This document shows, in pieces, positions 113 to 61,056 of a stretch of 64,000 bases of DNA; the first letter of the stretch is position 1, and every line of letters begins with the position of its first letter. The DNA comes from an uncultured Candidatus Saccharibacteria bacterium (lineage in GTDB: Bacteria; Patescibacteriota; Minisyncoccia; Phycocordibacterales; CSBR16-119). Location: assembly GCA_964557535.1 (NCBI GenBank), contig CAZLAD010000001.1, positions 58,482 through 122,481 of the forward strand, written 5' to 3'. The notes beneath the pieces were generated by a model that saw only the letters and a list, made by a program, of their open reading frames with translations, was not told the DNA's origin and did no database searches. The translations under genes and the position numbers were made by a program.

Positions 113-691
113 TTAGGGTGCCAAGAAGTACATGACTTCACCCGAAAAGTAATTGAGTGATGTCCGGCTGTGAATGTCTCCGGCGCTAACGGATGTTTGT
201 CGGTGACCATCTTCTTGATTGTATAACCTGAAATTGGCCACCAAGATGTCATTTTCTTCGTTGCAGACAACAAAGTGTGTGGCTCTGCTGATCTCTTCTC
301 GAGACGGAGGTTGTTCTTGGTCGAATACCCATTCTGCCTGTAGTAGGGACATTGCGATACCACGCTCAACCAATGAAAGATTGAAGGTGTCGTGAGTCGC
401 TTTCTGGAGACCCGTTGCTCTTCTCATCAAGGAGCTGAGTGGAGTTGCTTTCTGGGCTTCCATTAGTGAAGTTGATTCGAGGTGTAGTCTTGCGAGACGG
501 CCTCCATTTCGCTTCGGGACGTATTTTCCAAATTGCTCTATGAGCTTTGGACGATTGACCCAGAATCGGGACCTGTCTCGAACACAACTTGTCAAAAAGG
601 TCCTGGGGGTTTGTGGTACGAGGATATCACTAACCTCGTAGCCGAATTCTTCAACGGCGTTCCATTTGGCAGTGGCTAAGGTGGTTGGCAT
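113..691 (-). CDS. Hypothetical protein (192 aa) in a GC-elevated segment
   Basis: Long ORF with coherent codon usage, about 50% GC against a 40% background, and its own terminator hairpin; no recognisable motifs. Confidence 0.4.
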   Translation of the reverse strand: MPTTLATAKWNAVEEFGYEVSDILVPQTPRTFLTSCVRDRSRFWVNRPKLIEQFGKYVPKRNGGRLARLHLESTSLMEAQKATPLSSLMRRATGLQKATHDTFNLSLVERGIAMSLLQAEWVFDQEQPPSREEISRATHFVVCNEENDILVANFRLYNQEDGHRQTSVSAGDIHSRTSLNYFSGEVMYFLAP

Positions 692-2661: not shown

Positions 2662-3981
2662 ATGAGTGACATATTCAAGATCAAGGGCGGGAAAAAACTA
2701 AAAGGCACCATTAGACCACAAGGCTCGAAAAACGAGGCTTTTCAGGTTATCGCCGCGACGCTTCTGACTGACGAAGACGTGGTTATTGAAAATATTCCAG
2801 AAGTTTTGGATATCTTGAATTTGTTCGAAATCCTAAAAATTTTGGGCGTCGAAATTACGAAGCTCGGTCACGGTTCTTACAAACTAAACGCAAGCGCCGT
2901 CGATGTCGAGAAAATGAAATCGGAAGAATTTTCAAAACTTTTCTCCAAACTTCGCGGATCACTTTTGGTTGCGGGTGCGATGCTTGGGCGATTTGGAAAA
3001 AGTGTCATTCAACAGCCAGGCGGAGACAAAATCGGAATTCGTCCAATCACAACTCACGTCAAAGCCTTTGCCGATATTGGTGCGGATGTAGAAACAAAAG
3101 GAGATTTTCAGGAACTTGTTTTGAAAAATATTGTTTCGAAAAGGATCACTTTGAGCGAAACTTCGGTTACTGGAACAGCCAACGCAATCCTCTCGGCTGT
3201 TTTGGAAAAAGAATCTCCGCATGTTTTGGAAATTTATAACGCCGGTTGCGAAACTTATATCCAGCAGCTTTGCAAAATGTTAAACAATATGGGCGCCAAG
3301 ATTTCTGGTGCAGGCACGAATCTTGTCGTTATCGAATCAGTCAAAAAACTACACGCTACAAATCACACTCTTTTGCCGGACATGCTCGAAATCGTCAGCT
3401 TGATCGTGCTTGGAGTTGTGTGTGGCGAAGGAATTTTTATAGAAGGTGCCAAGAGAGAACACATCGGCGAAATTACAAATATTGTTTTGAAGAAACTCGG
3501 TGTGCGTTTCGAAGAGCGAGAAGATGGATTTTTCGTTCCCGAACACAAAGAATATGAAATCCAAAAACCGAGAACTCCAGGAAAAAATATTCGTATCATT
3601 TATGATGACAAATGGCCGGGACTTTCGCCGGACCACATCAGTAGTCTGATTGTGCTTTGTGTTTATGCCAAGGGCATGGTGACTATTCGTCAACGCATGT
3701 TTGATCGACGACTTCTGTTCTGTGACGTTTTGAACACCATGGGCGCAGAAATTGTCATGTCGCATCATCAGGAAGTTACGGTTGTTGGGAATAATCGAAG
3801 TCGAACTTTGGTTGGTCTCGAGATGGCATCACCTGATATTCGCGCCGGCATGGCACTACTTATCGCCGCGCTTTCAGCCAAAGGCGAAAGTATTATCCAA
3901 AATGCGCATCAGATAAATCGTGGTTACGAACAAATCGTTGAGCGACTTCAAACTCTCGGCGCCGATATAGAATATGCCTAA
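2662..3981 (+). CDS. murA: UDP-N-acetylglucosamine 1-carboxyvinyltransferase (MurA), active-site Cys replaced by Asp
   Basis: Full-length MurA similarity (KGGKKLKGTIRPQGSKNEA...). The active-site loop reads QPGGDKIGIRP where E. coli has LPGGCAIGARP. Confidence 0.95.
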   Translation: MSDIFKIKGGKKLKGTIRPQGSKNEAFQVIAATLLTDEDVVIENIPEVLDILNLFEILKILGVEITKLGHGSYKLNASAVDVEKMKSEEFSKLFSKLRGSLLVAGAMLGRFGKSVIQQPGGDKIGIRPITTHVKAFADIGADVETKGDFQELVLKNIVSKRITLSETSVTGTANAILSAVLEKESPHVLEIYNAGCETYIQQLCKMLNNMGAKISGAGTNLVVIESVKKLHATNHTLLPDMLEIVSLIVLGVVCGEGIFIEGAKREHIGEITNIVLKKLGVRFEEREDGFFVPEHKEYEIQKPRTPGKNIRIIYDDKWPGLSPDHISSLIVLCVYAKGMVTIRQRMFDRRLLFCDVLNTMGAEIVMSHHQEVTVVGNNRSRTLVGLEMASPDIRAGMALLIAALSAKGESIIQNAHQINRGYEQIVERLQTLGADIEYA

Positions 3982-4996: not shown

Positions 4997-6432
4997 ATAT
5001 GAAATTAGAAGAGATTTTAAAAAACATTGAAGTCCTCGAAACCGTTGGCTCGGCCGATGTTATGGTCGAGCACCTTTCTCTTGATTCTCGAAATATAAAA
5101 CCAGATACTTTGTTTTTTGCCGTGTCGGGGACGAAAGTCGACGGACATGCTTTTATCGATACGGCGATTTCGGCTGGTGCCAAAATAATTGTTTGTGAAA
5201 AATTTCCAGAAAATTTAAATTCTGAAGTTACTTACGTTCGCGTCGAAAATACGAGTGAAATTGTCGGGCTTGTGGCTAAAAATTTTTTCGGCAACAACGA
5301 TTTTGAAATGAAAATTGTCGGTGTGACAGGCACGAACGGCAAAACCACGATTGCGACAATGCTTTATCAATTATTTACTTTGCTTGGCCACAAAGGCGGA
5401 CTACTTTCGACGGTTGAAAATATTATCGGGACAGAAGTTCTTCCGGCGACGCATACGACAGGCGATGCAATTCAAATCCAAGAAAATTTGGCCAAGATGC
5501 GCGAGGCCAAGACGAAATATTGCTTCATGGAGGTGAGCTCGCATGCGATTGATCAGAATAGAATTGCCGGAATTGATTTTACCGGCGGAATTTTTACAAA
5601 CTTGACCCAAGACCATCTCGATTACCATCAGACCCTTGATGAATACGCCAAAGTCAAGAAAGCTTTTTTCGATTCTTTAACCAATCAAGCTTTTGCACTT
5701 TATAATTCTGACGATAATCGGGGAAGTTTTATGGTTGCTGATACTCACGCAAAAATAATTTCATACGGTAAAGTTGCCGCAGATTTTATTTTTAAAGTAA
5801 AAAAATCTTCTGCCGACGGACTCGAGCTCGTCATTAACGATACGATAGTTGTAACGTCGCTTGTCGGAGAATTCAATGCGTACAATATCACAGCAATATT
5901 TGCGGCCGCCGTGACACTCGGCGCCAAGCCAGACGACGTCGTAACCGCAATCGCGAAGCTTTCCGGCGCGCGCGGACGCATGGAAAAAGCAACGAGCGCT
6001 TCGGGAATTTTTGGCTTGGTTGATTATGCGCACACGCCGGACGCTCTCGAAAATGTTTTGAAGACGATCAATACTTTCAAACAAGGTCGTGTCGTTACGG
6101 TTTTTGGTGCGGGTGGCGACAGAGATAAAACCAAGCGTCCCATAATGGGTGAAATCGCCTCAAGACTTAGTGATGTTGTTGTCGTTACATCAGATAATCC
6201 GCGAAGCGAACGACCCGAAGACATCGCCGATGACATTCTCGCCGGGATCAAAGATAAAACAAATGTCGAGACGATTCTCGATCGTCGTGAAGCGATCAAG
6301 CGGGCGGTCGAGATCTCAAAGCCTGGGGACATTGTTTTGGTCGCGGGCAAAGGCCACGAAGATTATCAGGATGTCGCCGGAGTCAAAAGTCATTTTTCTG
6401 ATTTAGAAGTTTTGAGAGAATTTTTATCATGA
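4993..6432 (+). CDS. murE: UDP-MurNAc-L-Ala-D-Glu:meso-DAP ligase (MurE)
   Basis: Mur ligase P-loop VGVTGTNGKTT. The DNPR motif (VTSDNPRSE) indicates meso-diaminopimelate specificity. The first ATG is at 4999; 4993 is a TTG. Confidence 0.92.
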   Translation: MNMKLEEILKNIEVLETVGSADVMVEHLSLDSRNIKPDTLFFAVSGTKVDGHAFIDTAISAGAKIIVCEKFPENLNSEVTYVRVENTSEIVGLVAKNFFGNNDFEMKIVGVTGTNGKTTIATMLYQLFTLLGHKGGLLSTVENIIGTEVLPATHTTGDAIQIQENLAKMREAKTKYCFMEVSSHAIDQNRIAGIDFTGGIFTNLTQDHLDYHQTLDEYAKVKKAFFDSLTNQAFALYNSDDNRGSFMVADTHAKIISYGKVAADFIFKVKKSSADGLELVINDTIVVTSLVGEFNAYNITAIFAAAVTLGAKPDDVVTAIAKLSGARGRMEKATSASGIFGLVDYAHTPDALENVLKTINTFKQGRVVTVFGAGGDRDKTKRPIMGEIASRLSDVVVVTSDNPRSERPEDIADDILAGIKDKTNVETILDRREAIKRAVEISKPGDIVLVAGKGHEDYQDVAGVKSHFSDLEVLREFLS

Positions 6433-11775: not shown

Positions 11776-12447
11776 ATGGGACTTGAAGAATTGAAAAATG
11801 GTTTGAATCATCACGCGTATCTGATCGAAGGTGATTTGGAGCTTTCTTTCAAGGAACTTTTGCTTGCACTCGAACGACTGGAGATACCGACGCTTGGTAA
11901 TCCAGACCTTTTTATGAAAGAATACGAAAACCTGCTCATCGATCACGCGCGTGAGATCAAAGATTTCCAAAGTGAATCAGCTTCCGAGAAAAACAAAAAG
12001 AAAATCATGATTTTAAAAACACGGATGTTTTCTTATCCGGCCCAGAACGCACTTCTGAAAGTTTTCGAAGAACCACGTCCGGGCGTGGTCGTGTTTCTCA
12101 TCATGCCGGATTCGACAAAACTTTATCCGACGCTTCGTTCTAGACTTCTTGGCACTGTCGGTGAATACGCCCCGCATGATCAGCTAAAAAAAGATGCGAA
12201 AGTTTTCTTGAAGGGGACAATCAAAAATCGCTTGGACTTCCTGAAAAAGTTTTTGGATATCGAATCAAAGCCCAAGCTCAAAGAAGTCGCACTTAATTTT
12301 CTAAACCAACTCGAAGAAGAACTGGCCAAAAGCGATACTTTGGCGGACAAGGACAAAGTCAAAGACATTTATATGGTCAAAAAATACATCGGCGATCAGG
12401 GTTCGAGCCCAAAGATTCTCCTTGAGCATTTGGCAGCGATTTTGTAA
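11776..12447 (+). CDS. holB: DNA polymerase III delta'-like clamp-loader subunit (HolB-like)
   Basis: NALLKVFEEPRPGVVVFLI...TLRSRL matches the delta' sensor and SRC region. No P-loop is present, which is typical of delta'. Confidence 0.6.
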   Translation: MGLEELKNGLNHHAYLIEGDLELSFKELLLALERLEIPTLGNPDLFMKEYENLLIDHAREIKDFQSESASEKNKKKIMILKTRMFSYPAQNALLKVFEEPRPGVVVFLIMPDSTKLYPTLRSRLLGTVGEYAPHDQLKKDAKVFLKGTIKNRLDFLKKFLDIESKPKLKEVALNFLNQLEEELAKSDTLADKDKVKDIYMVKKYIGDQGSSPKILLEHLAAIL

Positions 12448-12477
12448 GTTTTGGGTATAACATTTGAAAATGTCGTA

Positions 12478-12582
12478 TTGTTAAAAGTTCGCGTACGCGG
12501 ATTTTTAACAATATTTAGATTTATTAATATATTAATAAATTCATAAATCCGTAAATTCATAAACTAATTTATGAATTTACGG
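12478..12582. repeat. Cluster of three consecutive palindromes in the holB-to-GC-island spacer
   Basis: (1) TTGTTAAAA...TTTTAACAA enclosing the palindrome CGCGTACGCG (12478-12511). (2) A perfect 22-nt palindrome ATTTATTAATATATTAATAAAT (12519-12540). (3) CCGTAAATTCATAAA-ctaa-TTTATGAATTTACGG with 15-bp arms (12549-12582). Confidence 0.8.
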
Positions 12583-12638
12583 ATCTTAATACCTTACATC
12601 AGTTAGGTGATGCAAAGGTATTGAACTATTACGGAGAC

Positions 12639-30773: not shown

Positions 30774-31298
30774 TTACATCCCAAAAGTTTCTCTGAGAGA
30801 CTTTTCGGTCACGGGGTCGATGTGTTGCGTGACGATGATCATGATTTCGTCAGCGAGATTCATGTCAGTTTTTATATTCATAAACAAATGTTCAAAAGGG
30901 TAGGGCGAGATCCACACAGAATTTTTCATACACAAAAATCCAGCTTTTTTGAGGATGTAGCGGATCGAGTCGCGCTCGCTTTTTCTCGATTCGGGGAAGT
31001 CCAGCATAACCATGCGCCAGTAGCCATCCCAGCGTGTATCGACGAGGCTGGTCGGAGTGCTAAGTTTGATATTTCGGAGTTTGTTTCGTCCCTCAGCTGT
31101 TAGACGTAGAAAAGACGACCGGTCGGTTGGGATTTCCTCTATAAGCCCGGATTCGGCCATGTTTTTGAGGCTTCGAGTTATGGCATATTTCTCGGCCGAA
31201 TCGCTTTCTAGGGCGAAAATTTCGCGGTTTATGGCCTTCTTGGAGCCCAATTTCTCGAGAATTTGCTTTTGGAGATTGGATTTTCTTGACATGCCCAA
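30774..31298 (-). CDS. PaaX-family winged-helix regulator-like protein (paralog 1), divergent from grpE
   Basis: C-terminal WDGYWRMVMLDFPESRKSERDSIRYILKKAGFLCMKNSVWISPYPFE matches the PaaX_C-type signature W..W..v.fD.pe....R..lr..L...GF..lq.SvW..P. It is paralogous to 35886..36455. Confidence 0.6.
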   Translation of the reverse strand: MGMSRKSNLQKQILEKLGSKKAINREIFALESDSAEKYAITRSLKNMAESGLIEEIPTDRSSFLRLTAEGRNKLRNIKLSTPTSLVDTRWDGYWRMVMLDFPESRKSERDSIRYILKKAGFLCMKNSVWISPYPFEHLFMNIKTDMNLADEIMIIVTQHIDPVTEKSLRETFGM

Positions 31299-31349
31299 AA
31301 TGTAGCATATAATACTTTAACTAGCAAGTTTTCCACGGTCGTGAAAAAC

Positions 31350-31377
31350 TTGTCAAAATTATAAAATTGATTATAAT
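31350..31377 (+). promoter_or_regulatory. grpE-dnaK operon promoter (TTGTCA-16-TATAAT), 6 nt from the ATG; leaderless
   Basis: TTGTCA at 31350-55 and TATAAT at 31372-77, with ATG at 31384. It is preceded by the palindromic motif CACGGTCGTG (31339-31348), which also occurs in element E7. Confidence 0.65.
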
Positions 31378-33837: not shown

Positions 33838-34488
33838 ATGAGTCTTGTTAGTGATGTAAAAGATAATATTGTAGACTTTGTGAAAGAAAGAGGGTCAAGT
33901 CCCTTTTGGGTGCCGTATGTTATTGCATGGGCATTTCTTCACTGGAAAGCAGTCTATGTAACAATTTTTGTTGGTTCGGATAGTTTGGAAGGTATAACTA
34001 AGTTGGATTATGTGATAAAAAATTTACCTCGAATGGAGTGGTGGTGGACGACACTTGTTGCGCTTGGGATTACTTACTTTTACTACATATTCATACGTTT
34101 TATTGTTAATCCAACATACTGGCTTAAATATTGGGCAATAAAACATAGGTTTAAGATAAAAGAGGAAGCTGACAGAGAAATAATCGAGGAAAAAATAAAA
34201 ACAGAACAAGCTCAGGATAGTTTAGACAACCAGTGGATTCAAGATTATGAGGAATTCACCATAAGTGCTGAGAATAGAGTAAAACTAGATTCGCTAATAA
34301 ATCTTATCTACAGCGATTCGGCTGGAAATTTACAGCACTCAGGTAACTATAATCTCAATAGATCTGATGTTGCCTTTTTTGATGCTTTAAAAATAGTTCA
34401 CATCGAGGAAGATAAATACGGTAATAAAAGAGCTTCTTTAACCGACAAGGGTAAATATTTCTATAGTCTGTCGAAAAAAAATAAATAA
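33838..34488 (+). CDS. Hypothetical two-TM membrane protein embedded in the dnaK operon
   Basis: Starts 3 nt after the dnaK stop. Two hydrophobic helices, an Arg/Glu-rich cytoplasmic segment, and about 35% GC, which is lower than dnaK (about 46%). Confidence 0.55.
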   Translation: MSLVSDVKDNIVDFVKERGSSPFWVPYVIAWAFLHWKAVYVTIFVGSDSLEGITKLDYVIKNLPRMEWWWTTLVALGITYFYYIFIRFIVNPTYWLKYWAIKHRFKIKEEADREIIEEKIKTEQAQDSLDNQWIQDYEEFTISAENRVKLDSLINLIYSDSAGNLQHSGNYNLNRSDVAFFDALKIVHIEEDKYGNKRASLTDKGKYFYSLSKKNK

Positions 34489-34943: not shown

Positions 34944-35825
34944 ATGTCAAAAGACTATTACAAAATTCTAGAAGTTGATAAAAGCGCTTCCAAAGAAGAG
35001 CTGAAAAAAGCTTTTCGTAAAAAGGCGCACGAATATCATCCGGACAAGAAAACTGGCAATGAAGCCAAGTTCAAGGAAGTGAACGAGGCTTACCAGGTTC
35101 TTTCTGACGACCAGAAACGCGCACAGTACGATCGGTTTGGTTCTGCCGGACCGCAGTTTGGCGGTCAAGGAAGTCAGGGCTTTGGTGGATTCGATTTTGG
35201 CGGATTCAATATCAACTTCGACGGTTTCCAGAATGGTCAGGAATTTGATTTGAACGACTTGTTCTCGGCTTTTGGTGGCGGAGGATTCGGCCGCCGCGTC
35301 AAACGCGGCAGGGACATAATTTTGTCACTTAGTATTTCGTTTAAAGAATCTGTTCAGGGAACTTCCAAAACTATCAAAGTTCCGTCCGAAAGCGCACAGA
35401 AAGGAAAGGGTGAAGTCGAATTCAAAATCCCAGCCGGTATCGAGTCAGGACAGATGATGAAGCTCCAAGGCTATGGCGAGCCAGTTGCCGATGGTCAGCC
35501 AGGAGATCTACTTCTCAAAATCTACGTCGAGTCACATAAATCTTTGCGCAAAGAGGGAATTCATCTTGTCACGAATCTCTCTGTCAAACTTACCGACGCC
35601 ATCCTCGGCGCGACGTATGACGTCGAAGGTGTTGATGGTCCGATCAAAATCAAAATTCCAAAAGGCATAAACACTGGCAAAATTCTCCGCATCAAAGGCG
35701 CCGGCGTCGCCGCAGGGCGTTTCCAGCATGGCGACCTGCTCGTCGTTGTCGAAGTTGAAATTCCAGATTCACTTTCTCGCGAACAAAAGAAAATCATTGA
35801 AGATCTCCAAAAATCCGGTTTGTAA
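34944..35825 (+). CDS. dnaJ: DnaJ-class co-chaperone (CbpA-like, no zinc-finger domain)
   Basis: J-domain with HPD (YYKILEV...YHPDK), a G/F-rich region, and C-terminal substrate-binding domains. No CxxCxGxG repeats. Confidence 0.85.
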
Positions 35826-35885
35826 ACAAGAAACCCATATATCTATCGGTGGTTTATAATTTACATATGTTACACTTAGACCACC

Positions 35886-36455
35886 ATGAAAAAGGTTTTT
35901 CGGAAGGCTAAAATAGATTACAAAGAAATCGTATTGAAATCACTTTTAGCTCTTGGTATTGTCGGACTTGCTACTCTAGCTCCAAATGCATTACAAATAA
36001 TAAAACTATTCCAAAACGACAAGGATTACAAATACCGAAAATATAATTTAAACAAAAAGATTTTTCTTTTACAAAAACAAGGCTATATTTATTTTGTCAC
36101 GAGAAATGGACAAAAGTTTGTGACGCTGACACCAAAAGGTAAGAAAGAAGTTGATAAATATTTACTTGGAGATCTGCAAATAAAAAAGCCCAAGAAGTGG
36201 GACAAGAAGTGGCGGATTGTTAGTTTTGATGTGAAAAATACCAGAACACCGCTTCGCAATCTCTTACGGCATCACTTGCGCCGTCTTGGATTTGTGCAAT
36301 ATCAGAAAAGTATTTGGATTCATCCGTATGATTGTGAGGAAATTATCATTATGATGAAATCGTATTTTAAATTCGGCAAGGAAGTAATGTATATAGTGGC
36401 TGAGCATTTAGAAAATGATAAAGATCTTCAGAAACATTTTGAAATAAAACGATAA
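35886..36455 (+). CDS. PaaX-family regulator-like protein (paralog 2)
   Basis: WDKKWRIVSFDVKNTRTPLRNLLRHHLRRLGFVQYQKSIWIHPYDCEE aligns with the C-terminus of 30774..31298. About 36% GC. Confidence 0.6.
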   Translation: MKKVFRKAKIDYKEIVLKSLLALGIVGLATLAPNALQIIKLFQNDKDYKYRKYNLNKKIFLLQKQGYIYFVTRNGQKFVTLTPKGKKEVDKYLLGDLQIKKPKKWDKKWRIVSFDVKNTRTPLRNLLRHHLRRLGFVQYQKSIWIHPYDCEEIIIMMKSYFKFGKEVMYIVAEHLENDKDLQKHFEIKR

Positions 36456-36500
36456 TTAAGGTTGCTTATCTTGAACATATGTAAATAATAAGCAACTTGG

Positions 36501-36569
36501 GGTAAAGGTAAAATCGAAATTCCAGAAAGTCTTTCAAGAGAGCAGAAGAAGTTGGTGAAGGAGGTATAA
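36501..36569 (+). pseudogene. Displaced 3'-terminal fragment of a dnaJ gene
   Basis: Translates to [22 protein letters not shown]. There are 12 identities in 17 residues with the current DnaJ C-terminus [17 protein letters not shown], many synonymous nucleotide differences, and no upstream ORF. Confidence 0.5.
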
Positions 36570-36596
36570 AAGCGAGACCTCTAAGATTTAATTAAT

Positions 36597-37082
36597 TTAA
36601 TATCCAACACAATCACCCATTGACGCGCCTAATATTGGAATACCCAAAAGACTTGTATTTTTTGTGTAGGTAGAAACCCCTTTATTTTTGTATATCGTAT
36701 GAACAGTTATGTAATTTTCCCCTGTGCCTTCGATGTAGACTATTTTTTCTTCATTTTCGACTAATTTCAAAAGCGGGACATTAGTGATTGTTTTAGTTGC
36801 ATCAATATAGCTTAATTGACCCGTTTCGCTATTTTCTAGATCAGAGAACGTAAAAATTAAAGGATTGGTTTCGGGTTTGTTTAATGAATGAGAAATAAAG
36901 TTGTCAGAATAATTTGCACTTAAGGTTTGGGGGTAAGTACAGGTTATTTGTTGACCAAACGATAGATTTGTGTCCCAGAAGGGTCTCCTTGCTTCACTGT
37001 AATTAATAAAATTATAATGAAAAATTATATATCCAATCAACACTCCAACACTTATAAATCCGATTATTTTTAATATTTTCAT
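36597..37082 (-). CDS. Hypothetical exported or membrane-anchored protein (161 aa), AT-rich
   Basis: N-terminal TM/signal (ILKIIGFISVGVLIGYIIF). About 33% GC. No motifs. Confidence 0.5.
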   Translation of the reverse strand: MKILKIIGFISVGVLIGYIIFHYNFINYSEARRPFWDTNLSFGQQITCTYPQTLSANYSDNFISHSLNKPETNPLIFTFSDLENSETGQLSYIDATKTITNVPLLKLVENEEKIVYIEGTGENYITVHTIYKNKGVSTYTKNTSLLGIPILGASMGDCVGY

Positions 37083-37103
37083 ATAAATTTACTTATAATA
37101 ATT

Positions 37104-38468
37104 TTATATCTTCCTCACCTCAAATTCCTCTCCCAAGTCTTTAATCTCGTAACCAAGAGACTTTATTTTATCGCGAAGCTCGTCTGATTTGTCCCAGTCT
37201 TTGGCGAGGCGGGCGGAGTTGCGTTCACGGGCGAGAGACAGGACTTCATCAGGAATTTCGTCACGGGTCCATGTGTCCATTCCGAGTCCGAGGACCTGGT
37301 CAAAGTCGAGAAGTGTCGCGCGTTTGTCGGCGAGGAGTGTTTCTTTGTCATTTACAAGTTCCCACATGACGGCCAAGGCTTTCGGCGTATTCAAATTGTC
37401 TTCCAAGGCCTCGGTAAATATTTTTTTATAATGCGCGCTCACGGTTCCGATGTCGGTTCCGAGATCGAGAAAATTATTTTTGAGTTTCTTCAGAGCATTT
37501 TGCGAAGCTTCGAGTGACTCCCAAGTGAAGTTTACAAGGCTTCGATAGTTGGCCTGGAGCAAAAAGTAGCGGTAGTCGATCGGACTGAAACCTTTTTCTT
37601 CCAAAGTTTTTAAGTAGACATCATTGCCCAAAGATTTGGAAATTTTTTCATCGTTTACGTTTAGGAAATTGTTGTGAAGCCAGAAGTTTACATATTTTTG
37701 ACCAGTGGCGTTTTCGGACTGGGCGATTTCGTTGTTGTGATGGATGGAGATGTGATCAATCCCGCCGGTGTGGATATCAAAATGCTCGCCCAAATATTTC
37801 ATCGACATACCGGAACATTCGATGTGCCAACCAGGAAAGCCTTTACCCCATGGCGTGTCCCAGCCGAGTTCGGAATTGAATTTCCAAAGCGCAAAGTCAC
37901 GCGGGTTTTTCTTTTCATTGTTTGTCTCCACACGTGCGACATTTTCATCTGAGAGTCCGCCAAGCGCGCCGTATTTGGAATCTTTGGAAGTATCAAAATA
38001 AAGTCCGTCAGAAGTTTTGTAGACGAAACCTTTTTCTTTCAGCTTTTTGATAATCTCAATGTCCTCGGCAATGTGATCAGTCGCGCGAGGGAACTTGTCG
38101 GCGAGAATTATGTTTAGTTTTTGTAAGTCTTCGATATAAGCTTTTTCGTATTTTTCGGCAACTTCTTTCATGGCTTCCACGGTCATTGGCAGACCCTCAC
38201 GTTTCAGGGCCTTGGTCATTTTGTCCTCGCCATCATCGCCGTCCGAAACGAGATGCCCGACGTCGGTTATGTTGATGACGTGTTTTACTTCCAGTCCTTC
38301 GTACCTTAGGGTTCGTTTCAAAATATCGGCGAAAACATACGAACGGAGATTTCCGATGTGGGCATAATTGTAAACGGTCGGTCCGCACGAATACATCTTG
38401 ACCAGACCTTCGGTCCGGGGCTTAAATTCTTCCTCGGTTTTTGAAAGGGTATTGTAAATTTTCAACAT
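37104..38468 (-). CDS. cysS: Cysteinyl-tRNA synthetase
   Basis: CGPTVYNYAHIGNLRSY (HIGH) and KMSKSLGN motifs, with Zn-binding Cys/His positions. Confidence 0.93.
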   Translation of the reverse strand: MLKIYNTLSKTEEEFKPRTEGLVKMYSCGPTVYNYAHIGNLRSYVFADILKRTLRYEGLEVKHVINITDVGHLVSDGDDGEDKMTKALKREGLPMTVEAMKEVAEKYEKAYIEDLQKLNIILADKFPRATDHIAEDIEIIKKLKEKGFVYKTSDGLYFDTSKDSKYGALGGLSDENVARVETNNEKKNPRDFALWKFNSELGWDTPWGKGFPGWHIECSGMSMKYLGEHFDIHTGGIDHISIHHNNEIAQSENATGQKYVNFWLHNNFLNVNDEKISKSLGNDVYLKTLEEKGFSPIDYRYFLLQANYRSLVNFTWESLEASQNALKKLKNNFLDLGTDIGTVSAHYKKIFTEALEDNLNTPKALAVMWELVNDKETLLADKRATLLDFDQVLGLGMDTWTRDEIPDEVLSLARERNSARLAKDWDKSDELRDKIKSLGYEIKDLGEEFEVRKI

Positions 38469-60937: not shown

Positions 60938-61056
60938 TCCCGGTAGTGATACCTCGGTTTTGGATGGGATAATTAGTAATCTAACCACGGTCGTGAATTC
61001 TTTACAAAAAACTAACTTCGATACGCAAATTTAATAAATTTGCTATCACTATCGGG
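60938..61056 (+). repeat. IR-bounded element E7 (119 nt) ending at the ATG of the 61057 gene
   Basis: TCCCGGTAGTGATA ... CCACGGTCGTGAATTCTTTACAAAAAACTAACTTCGATACGCAAATTTAATAAATTTGCTATCACTATCGGG followed by ATG. It contains the same CACGGTCGTG motif as the grpE promoter region. Confidence 0.75.

Follow-up and report, generated by a model that had tools for sequence, protein, structure and literature searches.

A displaced dnaJ 3'-end relic as a scar of gene exchange beside a short PaaX-like regulator gene in a Candidatus Saccharibacteria genome

Results

The window analyzed here, 64,000 nucleotides of DNA from an uncultured Candidatus Saccharibacteria bacterium (contig CAZLAD010000001.1), carries two copies of the 3' end of the chaperone gene dnaJ: the working end of the intact gene, and a displaced, damaged copy on the far side of a small cassette that encodes a PaaX-like protein. 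This relic is a genuine trace of gene exchange, if not a very unusual one, in a bacterium with a tiny genome that belongs to the Patescibacteria, a group of ultra-small, uncultured organisms with few classical mobile elements. The arrangement probably (with a probability that we put at roughly 0.6) reflects the joining of a segment of ∼0.76 kb into dnaJ, ∼25 codons ahead of the stop, through recombination anchored in homology to dnaJ.

A damaged second dnaJ end

The dnaJ gene (34947-35825, forward strand) encodes a 292-residue protein in which Pfam recognizes a J domain (PF00226, 9.6e-24) and a DnaJ_C domain (PF01556, 9e-38); it has no zinc-finger domain. Its orthologs are 79-86% identical and share the synteny grpE-dnaK-dnaJ ... 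cysS-corA, so that dnaJ forms the left conserved flank of a variable interval whose right flank, assigned by synteny, is the convergent cysS (37104-38468, reverse strand). An exact-protein look-up of the window's DnaJ for other contexts found nothing on record.

The last 24 codons and stop of dnaJ (35751-35825, forward strand; the left repeat copy) are matched by 75 bases at 36510-36584 on the same strand, in register at a constant offset of 759 nt and with no indel. We identified this pseudogene fragment by the in-register match, by shuffle tests, and by comparison with relatives. The preliminary description, made from the sequence without database searches, had drawn attention to a frame of 22 residues at 36501-36569, which reads as given there, and had counted 12 identities in 17 residues with the DnaJ C-terminus; the likeness stands, but the count is 11 of 18. 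Because the homology runs past the first TAA to a second TAA at the position of the dnaJ stop, we take the relic to span 36510-36584: beyond the internal TAA the register is kept (K R D L versus K S G L), and the terminal TAA (36582-36584) is in exact register with the stop of dnaJ. The damage consists of the in-frame TAA at 36567-36569 (Gln to stop), a Ser-to-Arg change and a Gly-to-Asp change. The relic has no dnaJ body upstream; stops precede it, and no continuous open reading frame joins it to a J-domain gene.

To judge the match quantitatively, we compared it with the rest of the window and with shuffled sequence. At 44 of 74 identical nucleotides, it is the top ungapped match to the dnaJ tail on either strand of the whole window (runner-up 38; background 19.3±4.1). 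Its ungapped BLOSUM62 score is 71, and the per-window maximum in 200 shuffles is 33.0±2.9 and reaches 48 at most. The similarity thus survives the comparison with shuffled sequence by which it could have failed, and both the nucleotide and the protein shuffles rule out a chance resemblance. When both ends of 70 genes in the window were scanned, dnaJ was unique in bearing such a relic. The many synonymous differences noticed earlier are confirmed: 8 of the 9 nucleotide differences in a 13-codon core are synonymous, including TCA to AGT and CGC to AGA. The short direct repeats suggested at 35826 and 36510 did not materialize; there is none besides the dnaJ-tail repeat itself, and a 23-nt candidate (D4) proved to be merely pal1 aligned with pal2, the two palindromes described below. 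The Rfam search of the relic gave nothing relevant, terminator prediction over 35600-37200 gave none, and no notable promoter was predicted in the relic.

The PaaX-like cassette

Between the dnaJ stop and the relic lie 684 nt that hold the PaaX-like gene (35886-36455) and two palindromes only, as expected from the earlier reading of an AT-rich segment with the PaaX-like gene alone. [quoted passage not shown] The gene, paaX2 (forward strand), encodes 189 residues with a Pfam PaaX_M match (PF20803, 3e-18), and it scores 29 bits against TIGR02277, for which the cut-off is 264.55. The AlphaFold model of its product (pLDDT 78) shows a winged helix-turn-helix (H48-64 plus wing) followed by a beta-alpha-beta-beta-alpha-beta unit; Foldseek ranks E. 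coli PaaX (8a39) first and Cas2 structures next. PaaX2 is therefore PaaX-like, a short protein that combines a winged helix-turn-helix with a Cas2-like domain, and is not PaaX. It shares with E. coli PaaX, a phenylacetyl-CoA-responsive repressor, the winged helix and the central Cas2-like domain, and its flanking dyad-symmetric sites are as expected of a dimeric repressor. In contrast to E. coli PaaX, it has 189 residues rather than about 305-316 and lacks the C-terminal domain; it falls far under the TIGR02277 cut-off, and no paa genes are near, its neighbors being dnaJ and cysS.

The first dyad-symmetric site, pal1 (35848-35885, centered on CATATG at 35864-35869), occupies a position that is conserved in 13 related loci. 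It abuts the paaX2 start codon, contains TATAAT, and its outer half-sites covary; from these sequence features, pal1 is probably the PaaX2 operator and promoter. The second site, pal2 (36461-36496, centered on CATATG at 36476-36481), marks the right edge of the cassette and shares 34 of its 36 positions with pal2 of the related locus L096; between the two, a T-A to C-G change is compensatory. The half-site types of the two palindromes differ (GGTGGT in pal1, GCTTAT in pal2), which points to a recombinant paaX2 cassette in the window. The paaX2 orthologs are invariably downstream of dnaJ; where homologs occur in other contexts, the second palindrome precedes the gene that comes next. A phage or defense origin of paaX2 is unsupported: there was no PHROG match, none in phage records or viral contigs, and PADLOC returned marginal Cas2 matches only (E about 0.006).

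Between the relic and cysS lies an open reading frame of 161 residues (36597-37082, reverse strand; GC 0.29-0.35), a lineage-specific cargo gene of unknown function with no Pfam, PHROG or PADLOC match and no homolog in the related loci.

Occupied and empty sites in relatives

The comparison set comprised 102 related loci, and a metagenome scan gave at least 3 loci. Relics occur at the same place, 3' of pal2, in at least 4 other lineages (L009, L082/L089, L084/L085 and, marginally, L096), and they are disabled in ways that differ by lineage: by a P-to-S change, a 1-nt frameshift, or stop codons. The marginal L096 copy is decayed and contains stops, with a score of 31 against a null maximum of 30. 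Apparent vestiges in L086 and L101 failed the shuffle test, and that in L005 is better read as dnaJ post-stop flank. Because relics are present in several lineages, each damaged differently, the relic is neither an artefact nor chance; an assembly artefact is also ruled out by its recurrence, with differing damage, in independent NCBI, JGI, ENA and Logan assemblies.

Two genomes without paaX2, L001 and L004, have one dnaJ end followed by a terminator (an empty site). The dnaJ end and terminator of L004 align through the stop codon with the relic and terminator of L082, and the stop and terminator flank of L001 aligns with the DNA directly after pal2 in L098 and L005. The alignment with dnaJ-downstream regions of relatives, which had been put forward as a check, thus brings empty and occupied sites into correspondence. 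Given this correspondence of empty-site ends with relics, each together with its terminator, we read the relic as the original dnaJ end, still on its original downstream DNA.

Seven genomes keep paaX2 and have no relic (L003, L005, L086, L098, L099, L088 and L090); all of them keep pal2 except L003, where it is degenerate. The presence of dnaJ-paaX2 without a relic in the deeper-branching L088 and L090 indicates that paaX2 was at the locus before the relic-forming event, and what we call insertion may, on this comparison, have been a re-insertion or replacement. The distance from pal2 to the relic, counted from the alignment, is 28-54 nt across lineages, so the junction may not be a single shared event. 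At four-fold degenerate sites, paaX2 and dnaJ have reached saturation between lineages (identity 0.17-0.49), yet the relics are 60-72% alike and only lightly damaged. Saturated silent sites together with well-kept relics are not what one old event and subsequent free drift would leave; the account also requires recurrent events, selection, or refreshment of the relics by recombination with alleles from empty sites.

Two alleles of the dnaJ end

The divergence between relic and working end has the character of allelic divergence. In L082, a codon count gives 9 synonymous codon differences, 4 missense differences and 1 frameshift between the two, and the synonymous differences include two Ser TCN/AGY and two Leu switches. 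The working end nearest to each relic belongs to another genome: L082 for the window's relic, L002 for that of L009, L096 for that of L084, and L009 for that of L082. Because the divergence is mostly synonymous and each relic is nearest another genome's end, relic and working end are two alleles which, to judge from these codon patterns, diverged under coding constraint. The preliminary description had raised the possibilities that incoming DNA supplied a replacement 3' end or that dnaJ recombined with a divergent allele, and had asked whether the dnaJ of relatives ends in remnant-type sequence; the allelic divergence and the cross-genome nearest ends are what either idea predicts.

We infer that the working dnaJ 3' end probably came in with the insert. 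The window's working end clusters with the working ends of other genomes that carry paaX2, with which it shares 57-65 of 75 nt; with those of the paaX2-less L002 and L004 it shares 48-55 of 75. In the last 75 nt of dnaJ, the identity is 70% to L002 and 64% to L004, compared with 85-88% and 73-80% just upstream; against paaX2-bearing relatives there is no such drop. This pattern is only suggestive of a recombination breakpoint at -75 in dnaJ. A sorting of dnaJ ends into two types (AAA-TCC-GGT versus AAG-AGT-GGN) is fuzzy, with L096 in between, and gives a hint at most of two sequence classes.

An exchange hotspot between dnaJ and cysS

The cargo between dnaJ and cysS is unlike among L001, L002, L003, L004, L007 and the window, and the flanks (dnaJ ... 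cysS-corA) are conserved. Mosaic genes are found in and around the interval: the dnaJ of L034 falls from 80% identity in the N-terminal part to 55% in the C-terminal part, the dnaK of L008 is mosaic, and so is the window's own paaX2. The identity of cysS to relatives is 51-87% (59-87% for the closest, L001-L005 and L009) and is uncoupled from that of dnaJ and corA, which indicates allelic replacement of cysS. By these comparisons, the dnaJ-cysS interval is a mosaic hotspot of variable cargo.

A distant genome, L028, has a 97-nt direct repeat of the dnaJ 3' end that is 87% identical overall and identical over its last 63 nt. The repeat flanks a 2.4-kb cassette with a radical-SAM protein and two unknown open reading frames, without a recombinase; over the first 34 nt, the relic in L028 is ∼65% identical and still encodes DnaJ in frame. 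Read from its sequence, L028 is an independent and fresh case of a dnaJ-end repeat. The identical core shared by the window's two dnaJ ends is GAAATTCCAGA (11 nt, against 63 nt in L028), and junction distances vary by lineage.

Discussion

The reading that we consider best supported is recombination anchored in dnaJ homology. In the incoming segment, the final ∼75 nt of dnaJ from a divergent allele would have been followed by a 22-nt spacer, pal1, paaX2 and pal2. Its dnaJ tail would have left dnaJ intact, and the resident tail would have been displaced past the cassette, where it would still lie beside the former dnaJ-downstream DNA and would later have gained a stop codon and missense changes. 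Two routes are conceivable: in one, a homologous crossover within dnaJ would be combined with illegitimate joining of the other end of the incoming DNA; in the other, a circular molecule bearing a dnaJ tail would enter by one crossover. Neither would involve an element-encoded recombinase, and the setting is a lineage in which relatives exchange cassettes at the dnaJ-cysS hotspot. Both the direction of the event (an insertion and not the reverse) and the route we infer from the comparisons above. Several observations sit less well with this reading: besides the well-kept relics, the varying distance from pal2 to the relic and the relic-free deeper-branching genomes described above, the perfect 63-nt block of L028 suits a site-specific core better than illegitimate joining, and the -75 breakpoint signal is suggestive at most.

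It is instructive to compare the locus with known systems of cassette exchange. Minimal mobile elements are variable cassettes between conserved flanking genes that are swapped by homologous recombination after transformation. The dnaJ-cysS interval resembles them in its conserved flanks (dnaJ and cysS-corA), in cassettes that differ between close relatives, and in its mosaic flanking genes; it differs in that two homologous crossovers do not duplicate a gene end. Such elements have been reviewed for Neisseria (PMC3787668). Because the classical two-crossover exchange leaves no relic, an illegitimate or single-crossover step is needed.

Phages and integrative elements that enter at tRNA or tmRNA genes, and integrative and conjugative elements that enter at the 3' ends of protein genes, carry a replacement end for the gene they interrupt. 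Could the cassette be such an element, or part of one, with the dnaJ 3' end as its attachment site and a recombinase encoded elsewhere, so that the dnaJ tail and the relic would be attL and attR, as in cis-mobilisable elements without an integrase of their own? The likeness is considerable: direct repeats of the target's 3' end bracket the insert, the gene is kept intact, relatives have empty sites, and the dnaJ target was struck independently in L028, an unrelated lineage, with its 63-nt perfect block. The relic position is also alike in all cases, about 25-32 codons before the stop, and relics that remain recognizable despite neutral saturation are expected if attachment sites are selected or integration is repeated. 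We nevertheless consider this reading unlikely and favor homology-driven recombination over site-specific integration. No integrase or recombinase was found by Pfam domains in or beside the 0.76-kb insert, and none in the 2.4-kb L028 insert; the window contains no tRNA gene to serve as target, and the cassette has no relatives in viral contigs or phage records. The cargo is one gene for a 189-residue regulator, the repeats are allelically divergent with only 11 nt perfect, and junction distances differ between lineages. In addition, paaX2 orthologs are found at one locus only, with seemingly vertical inheritance over deep divergence. The close analogy to integrase-driven elements at tRNA genes that had been drawn from the sequence is thus not upheld.

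Long target duplication offers another precedent. It was described for restriction-modification units (Nobusato, Furuta and Kobayashi; Furuta et al. 2010), is typical of naturally transformable bacteria, and is recognized by repeats of >30 bp around an insert of <20 kb without mobility genes, with one copy in the empty genome (PMC2853133). The geometry here is of that kind, with a repeat of 74-75 nt, an insert of 684 nt, and a single copy, to which both repeats align, in empty-site genomes; the published repeats are tens to hundreds of bp long, flank small units without mobility genes, sometimes overlap gene 3' ends, and occur mostly in competent species (PMC2853133). On this model, a resident dnaJ tail of ∼75 nt would have been doubled on entry of the cassette and the copies would then have diverged in place. 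The 87% identical L028 repeat, with its 63-nt identical block, agrees with this, but the first 34 nt of its relic, ∼65% identical and yet in-frame DnaJ, do not. In the published cases both copies derive from the resident target, whereas here they are two different dnaJ alleles: the divergence is biased to synonymous changes and includes multi-step Ser and Leu switches, which are not expected of a freely drifting dead copy, and the working end most like any given relic is found in a different genome. The cargo differs as well, a PaaX-like regulator in place of restriction-modification. In-place duplication is thus quite improbable as the origin of the window's relic.

A different kind of reading is that the relic is kept for a function, as part of a paaX2 3' UTR or terminator, or as a recombination handle by which the cassette could be reversibly lost and regained; its descent from dnaJ would then be mere history. 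Its conservation is far above that of the four-fold sites of adjacent genes; pal2 and the junction are near-identical in the window and L096 although the silent sites of paaX2 are saturated; and in L082 and L096 a terminator hairpin after the relic would now end the paaX2 transcript. All the same, the seven paaX2 keepers without a relic point to frequent independent loss, the damage and the retained length differ from copy to copy, and the window's copy has neither an Rfam match nor a notable predicted terminator or promoter. We find this reading very doubtful.

More speculative still is that pal1-paaX2-pal2 might form a self-contained reversible cassette, with the dnaJ-tail repeats as attachment sites and PaaX2, bound through its winged helix and Cas2-like fold to the two co-evolving palindromes, aiding excision and re-insertion. 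If true, this would explain fresh relics beside saturated silent sites, a diversification of operator and recognition helix like that of an immunity system, and homologs elsewhere that are bracketed by paired palindromes between housekeeping genes; we regard it as a long shot. The relic can hardly be the remnant of a deleted paralogous dnaJ-like gene downstream of paaX2, with pal2 as the promoter-operator of the vanished gene (compare the second palindrome of homologs elsewhere), since a second dnaJ follows paaX2 in 0 of 102 related loci and the relic runs directly into the terminator found after the only dnaJ in empty-site genomes; a chance match and an assembly artefact fall to the shuffles and to recurrence in independent assemblies.

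On the preferred reading, homology-anchored recombination, the locus illustrates cleanly, by comparison of relatives, how Patescibacteria change their gene content: at the very end of an essential chaperone gene, a cassette comes in with a replacement end and without its own recombinase. The dnaJ-cysS interval, and the dnaJ tail in general, would be a recurrent entry point, which helps to spot transferred cargo, and recognizing the relic avoids its mis-annotation as a small open reading frame.

The regulator may outweigh the scar in worth. A literature search for PaaX in Patescibacteria or CPR bacteria, or for PaaX with a Cas2-like domain, found nothing, and the family appears unstudied in these bacteria. 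As a separate observation, the PaaX2 recognition helix co-varies with both flanking palindromes, so that these short PaaX-like regulators offer a natural specificity series.

Organization of the dnaJ locus

Gene order in this region is that of a heat-shock locus of the Patescibacteria type. The locus starts with a PaaX-like gene on the minus strand (paaX1, 30774-31298), followed by grpE, dnaK, a 216-aa ORF with no assigned function (33838-34488), a YbaK-like editing-domain gene and dnaJ (34947-35825), whose 292-aa product has a J domain and a DnaJ_C domain; the zinc-finger (CxxCxGxG) domain is absent from the window's DnaJ. A DnaJ of about 359 aa with the zinc finger occurs in remoter Patescibacteria relatives such as L028 (related loci and genomes are designated L001-L101). 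Beyond dnaJ lies a second PaaX-like gene (paaX2, 35886-36455, 189 aa), which together with two flanking dyad-symmetric sites, pal1 (35848-35885) and pal2 (36461-36496), we call the paaX2 cassette. Three genes on the minus strand complete the locus: a 161-aa ORF, also of unassigned function, cysS and corA. GC content falls from 0.44-0.51 in the flanks to 0.29-0.36 in the island bounded by the stop codons of dnaJ and cysS. The 216-aa ORF is likewise low in GC (0.32-0.37), with no Pfam match and no homolog in any related locus, and may be a second lineage-specific insertion, within the chaperone operon.

A relic of the dnaJ 3′ end

The 130 nt separating paaX2 from the 161-aa ORF contain a disabled copy of the dnaJ 3′ end, here termed the relic. 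The preliminary description had reported a dnaJ remnant in a frame at 36501-36569; frame and translation are as described and the derivation from dnaJ holds, but the remnant was drawn too short, its true extent being 36510-36584. Past the TAA at 36567 the relic frame runs K-R-D-L-stop, facing K-S-G-L-stop in DnaJ, and the match to the working end of dnaJ (35751-35825) keeps a constant offset of 759 nt through the terminal stop. We count 11 identities in 18 residues, rather than the 12 in 17 given earlier. At the nucleotide level 44 of 74 positions are identical, and no other stretch on either strand of the 64-kb window matches the dnaJ tail as well (38 for the runner-up, 19.3 ± 4.1 for the background); the ungapped BLOSUM62 score of 71 compares with whole-window maxima of 33.0 ± 2.9 (highest, 48) in 200 shuffles. 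The many synonymous differences remarked on before are also real: in the 13-residue core, 8 of the 9 nucleotide differences are synonymous, including TCA to AGT and CGC to AGA. Damage to the relic consists of one stop and two missense changes. No other gene-end relic of this kind was found at either end of 70 window genes.

A DnaJ genome scan yielded 80 loci, the nearest relatives having DnaJ identities of 79-86%. Close relatives share the order paaX1, grpE, dnaK, dnaJ ... cysS, corA, and the content of the dnaJ-cysS interval varies by genome: L001, L002, L004 and L007 have unrelated genes there and lack paaX2, while in L003, L005 and L009 paaX2 follows dnaJ immediately. Seven of the eight paaX2 orthologs that we looked at (63-82% identity; L084-L089, L096-L100) sit between dnaJ and cysS, as does the 52% homolog of L090. 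The exception is P0015 (L101, 1-2396; about 65-68% identical to paaX2), where the preceding gene encodes an NHL-repeat protein of 1290 aa in place of DnaJ; what lies to the left of paaX2 is thus not fixed. Both palindromes are retained at L101.

A dnaJ-tail relic directly 3′ of the cassette is also found in L009, L082 (= L089) and L084 (= L085), and a decayed, marginal one in L096 (score 31; null maximum, 30). The L009 relic has a Pro-to-Ser change, its 3′ half being unreadable owing to a run of N (1269-1368) that starts within it and spans the cysS 3′ end. In L082 there is a 1-nt frameshift in an otherwise continuous V-E-I-P-D-S-L-T-R-E-Q-K-(K)-L-T-E-E-L-Q-K-S-G-L-stop; three stop codons interrupt the L084 relic, and L096 has stops and a 3-nt deletion. 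With distinct damage in each, the relics behave as pseudogene fragments, and their recurrence across lineages with differing damage excludes a chance match or assembly error as their origin. When each of 79 dnaJ loci was scanned with its own tail, a second dnaJ tail appeared only in L009, L082 and L028, the window being the fourth case. The relic is absent from the paaX2-bearing L003, L005, L086, L098 and L099, and the deeper genomes L088 and L090 have dnaJ-paaX2 with no relic.

Identity of the resident copy

Alignment with dnaJ-downstream DNA of relatives shows that the dnaJ ends of empty sites, those without paaX2, match the relic side of occupied genomes. On both sides of the stop codon, the dnaJ end and hairpin terminator of L004 align with the relic and following hairpin of L082, and the stop codon and terminator of L001 align with the post-pal2 DNA of L098 and L005, both of which have paaX2 and no coding relic. 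These alignments mark the relic side as resident: the relic, or at least the DNA formerly 3′ of dnaJ, would be resident sequence displaced downstream, and the working dnaJ tail would lie on the insert side.

The two copies are also different alleles. This is clearest in L082, where relic and working end differ by nine synonymous codons against four missense changes and one frameshift; the synonymous set includes two Ser TCN/AGY and two Leu CTN/TTR switches, which build up under coding constraint and not in a dead copy. The synonymous bias in the window points the same way. Moreover, the working end closest to each relic belongs to another genome (window to L082, L009 to L002, L084 to L096, L082 to L009). 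Working ends of paaX2-bearing genomes are alike at 57-65 of 75 nt, compared with 48-55 of 75 against L002 and L004. The identity of the window's dnaJ to these two genomes drops in the last 75 nt, with no drop against paaX2-bearing relatives, a result that is no more than suggestive.

Recombination and the origin of the relic

Judged by sequence comparison, the locus is a recombination hotspot. The dnaJ of L034 (1766-2805) is 80% identical to the window's in its J-domain half and 55% in its C-terminal half, and identity in the dnaK of L008 (3260-5150) changes from 96% to 77%; both mosaics are signs of recombination between divergent lineages. The identity of cysS to the window's (51-87%; 59-87% among the closest relatives) is uncoupled from that of dnaJ and corA. 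In L081 a second, decayed cysS 3′ end (278-367, minus strand; score 74 against the window's CysS tail) lies 5′ of pal1-paaX2, at the usual place of dnaJ, with the true cysS 1 kb beyond, indicating that the gene at the other edge of the interval likewise leaves end relics.

The best explanation, to which we give a probability of roughly 0.6, is that the relic is the displaced original dnaJ tail and that the working tail arrived with the small paaX2 cassette through recombination at dnaJ. The preliminary description had proposed that incoming DNA supplied a replacement 3′ end, or that dnaJ recombined with a divergent allele; the allele and empty-site evidence supports this in substance. The window insert has no recombinase, the window no tRNA gene, and no relatives of paaX2 were found in phage records or viral contigs. 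The simplest route would be recombination anchored in dnaJ homology. In one version, incoming DNA from a relative would pair with dnaJ upstream of -75 and its far end, just beyond pal2, would be joined illegitimately to the resident dnaJ at about -75, leaving the resident tail downstream; in another, a single crossover would take in a circular piece bearing a dnaJ tail. Both would yield the order seen: working tail, pal1, paaX2, pal2, relic. The event is a variation on known kinds: 3′-end insertion with end replacement, inserts that have long repeats but lack mobility genes, and the swapping of cassettes within conserved flanks.

An independent and recent case of a dnaJ-end repeat comes from the genome L028, only distantly related within the Patescibacteria (its DnaJ and the window's share 39% identity). 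Its dnaJ 3′ end is directly repeated over 97 nt (3369-3465 and 5851-5947) on either side of a 2.4-kb insert encoding a radical-SAM protein and two ORFs of unassigned function (235 and 55 aa), possibly a peptide-modification cassette, with no recombinase in the insert. The two copies match perfectly over their final 63 nt and at about 65% of positions over the first 34 nt, which still translate in frame as DnaJ. Site-specific integration by a recombinase encoded elsewhere would be the better fit to the identical 63-nt block, and we consider it unlikely overall. [quoted passage not shown] It is known from competent bacteria, where the inserts are restriction-modification units and the repeats at times overlap gene 3′ ends (PMC2853133). 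It derives both copies from the resident gene, and the codon evidence contradicts this. That the palindrome-bracketed PaaX-like gene is a reversible cassette with the dnaJ tail as its attachment site is highly improbable.

Displacement of the resident tail by an incoming one leaves a puzzle. In comparisons of the window with every relative, paaX2 and dnaJ have reached saturation at four-fold degenerate sites (identity 0.17-0.49), yet the relics are 60-72% identical among themselves and lightly damaged, so that one old event followed by free drift cannot account for them. Spacing also differs by lineage, with 28, 31, 37, 44 or 54 nt separating the centre of pal2 from the relic's GAAATYCC motif. 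The relic-forming event may have happened repeatedly, in several lineages; recombination with empty-site alleles, which share homology with the relic plus the DNA beyond it, may have kept relics fresh; or some selection may act on the relic, although its loss in five paaX2-bearing genomes (L003, L005, L086, L098, L099) argues against a strong function. The relic-free arrangement in L088 and L090 indicates that paaX2 was at the locus before the relic formed, and the relic-forming event may have been a re-acquisition or replacement.

PaaX2 and its palindromes

PaaX2 is a short PaaX-like protein, matching Pfam PaaX_M (3e-18) with a score far under the PaaX equivalog cut-off. Its AlphaFold model (pLDDT 78) places a Cas2-like fold after a winged helix made up of H33-43, H48-64 and a beta wing, the top structural match being E. 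coli PaaX (8a39), then Cas2 chains. We found no literature on such proteins in Patescibacteria.

Both palindromes are present at 12 of 14 paaX2 loci; L081 lacks pal2, and L003 has a degenerate version of it, with pairing at 10 of 22 arm positions. We compared 26 sites of about 38 nt, the window's two and 24 from L003-L101. The CATATG centre is nearly invariant (ATATG at all 26 sites, preceded by C at 25), while the 7-bp outer half-sites vary by genome yet remain symmetric. Pairing holds in 71.7% of cells, a level that none of 500 shuffles reached (50.4% for shuffles, 34-42% for slid controls), and several column pairs have three pair types with zero mismatches. Half-site types (GGTGAT, CGCTTAT, CACTTAG, CACGTAA and others) track hypervariable PaaX2 residues ~40-56, the start of the predicted recognition helix; the remainder of the protein is 72-94% identical among close orthologs and 53-59% to L090, the most distant. 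This covariation argues that pal1 and pal2 are very likely PaaX2 binding sites, and it looks like co-diversification of operator and repressor specificity. Pal1 overlaps the predicted paaX2 promoter.

The window's cassette is itself recombinant: pal1 and the first third of paaX2 (~58 N-terminal residues) group with L009, L003 and L081 (GGTGAT group), and pal2 and the last two thirds with L005 (94% amino-acid identity) and L096 (89%) (GCTTAT group), so that pal2 is mismatched to the protein's own specificity group. Two strong palindromes at 12472-12587, in the intergenic gap between ORFs that end at 12447 and 12586, pair at 17-19 of 22 arm positions and have no relation to the paaX2 sites.

The other PaaX-like gene, paaX1, may regulate the grpE-dnaK-dnaJ operon in place of HrcA. 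Between the divergent paaX1 and grpE lies a 28-nt palindrome, CAAGTTTTCCACGGTCGTGAAAAACTTG (31325-31352), overlapping a promoter-like TTGTCA; its 10-nt centre, CACGGTCGTG (31334-31343), recurs at 60986-60995, upstream of a membrane-protein cluster (2 window matches against 0.14 expected). PaaX-like homologs at other sites (L092, rpmE-prfA; L094, obg-gatB) are bracketed by palindromes centred not on CATATG but on CACGRYCGTG, the same centre as that of the paaX1-grpE palindrome.
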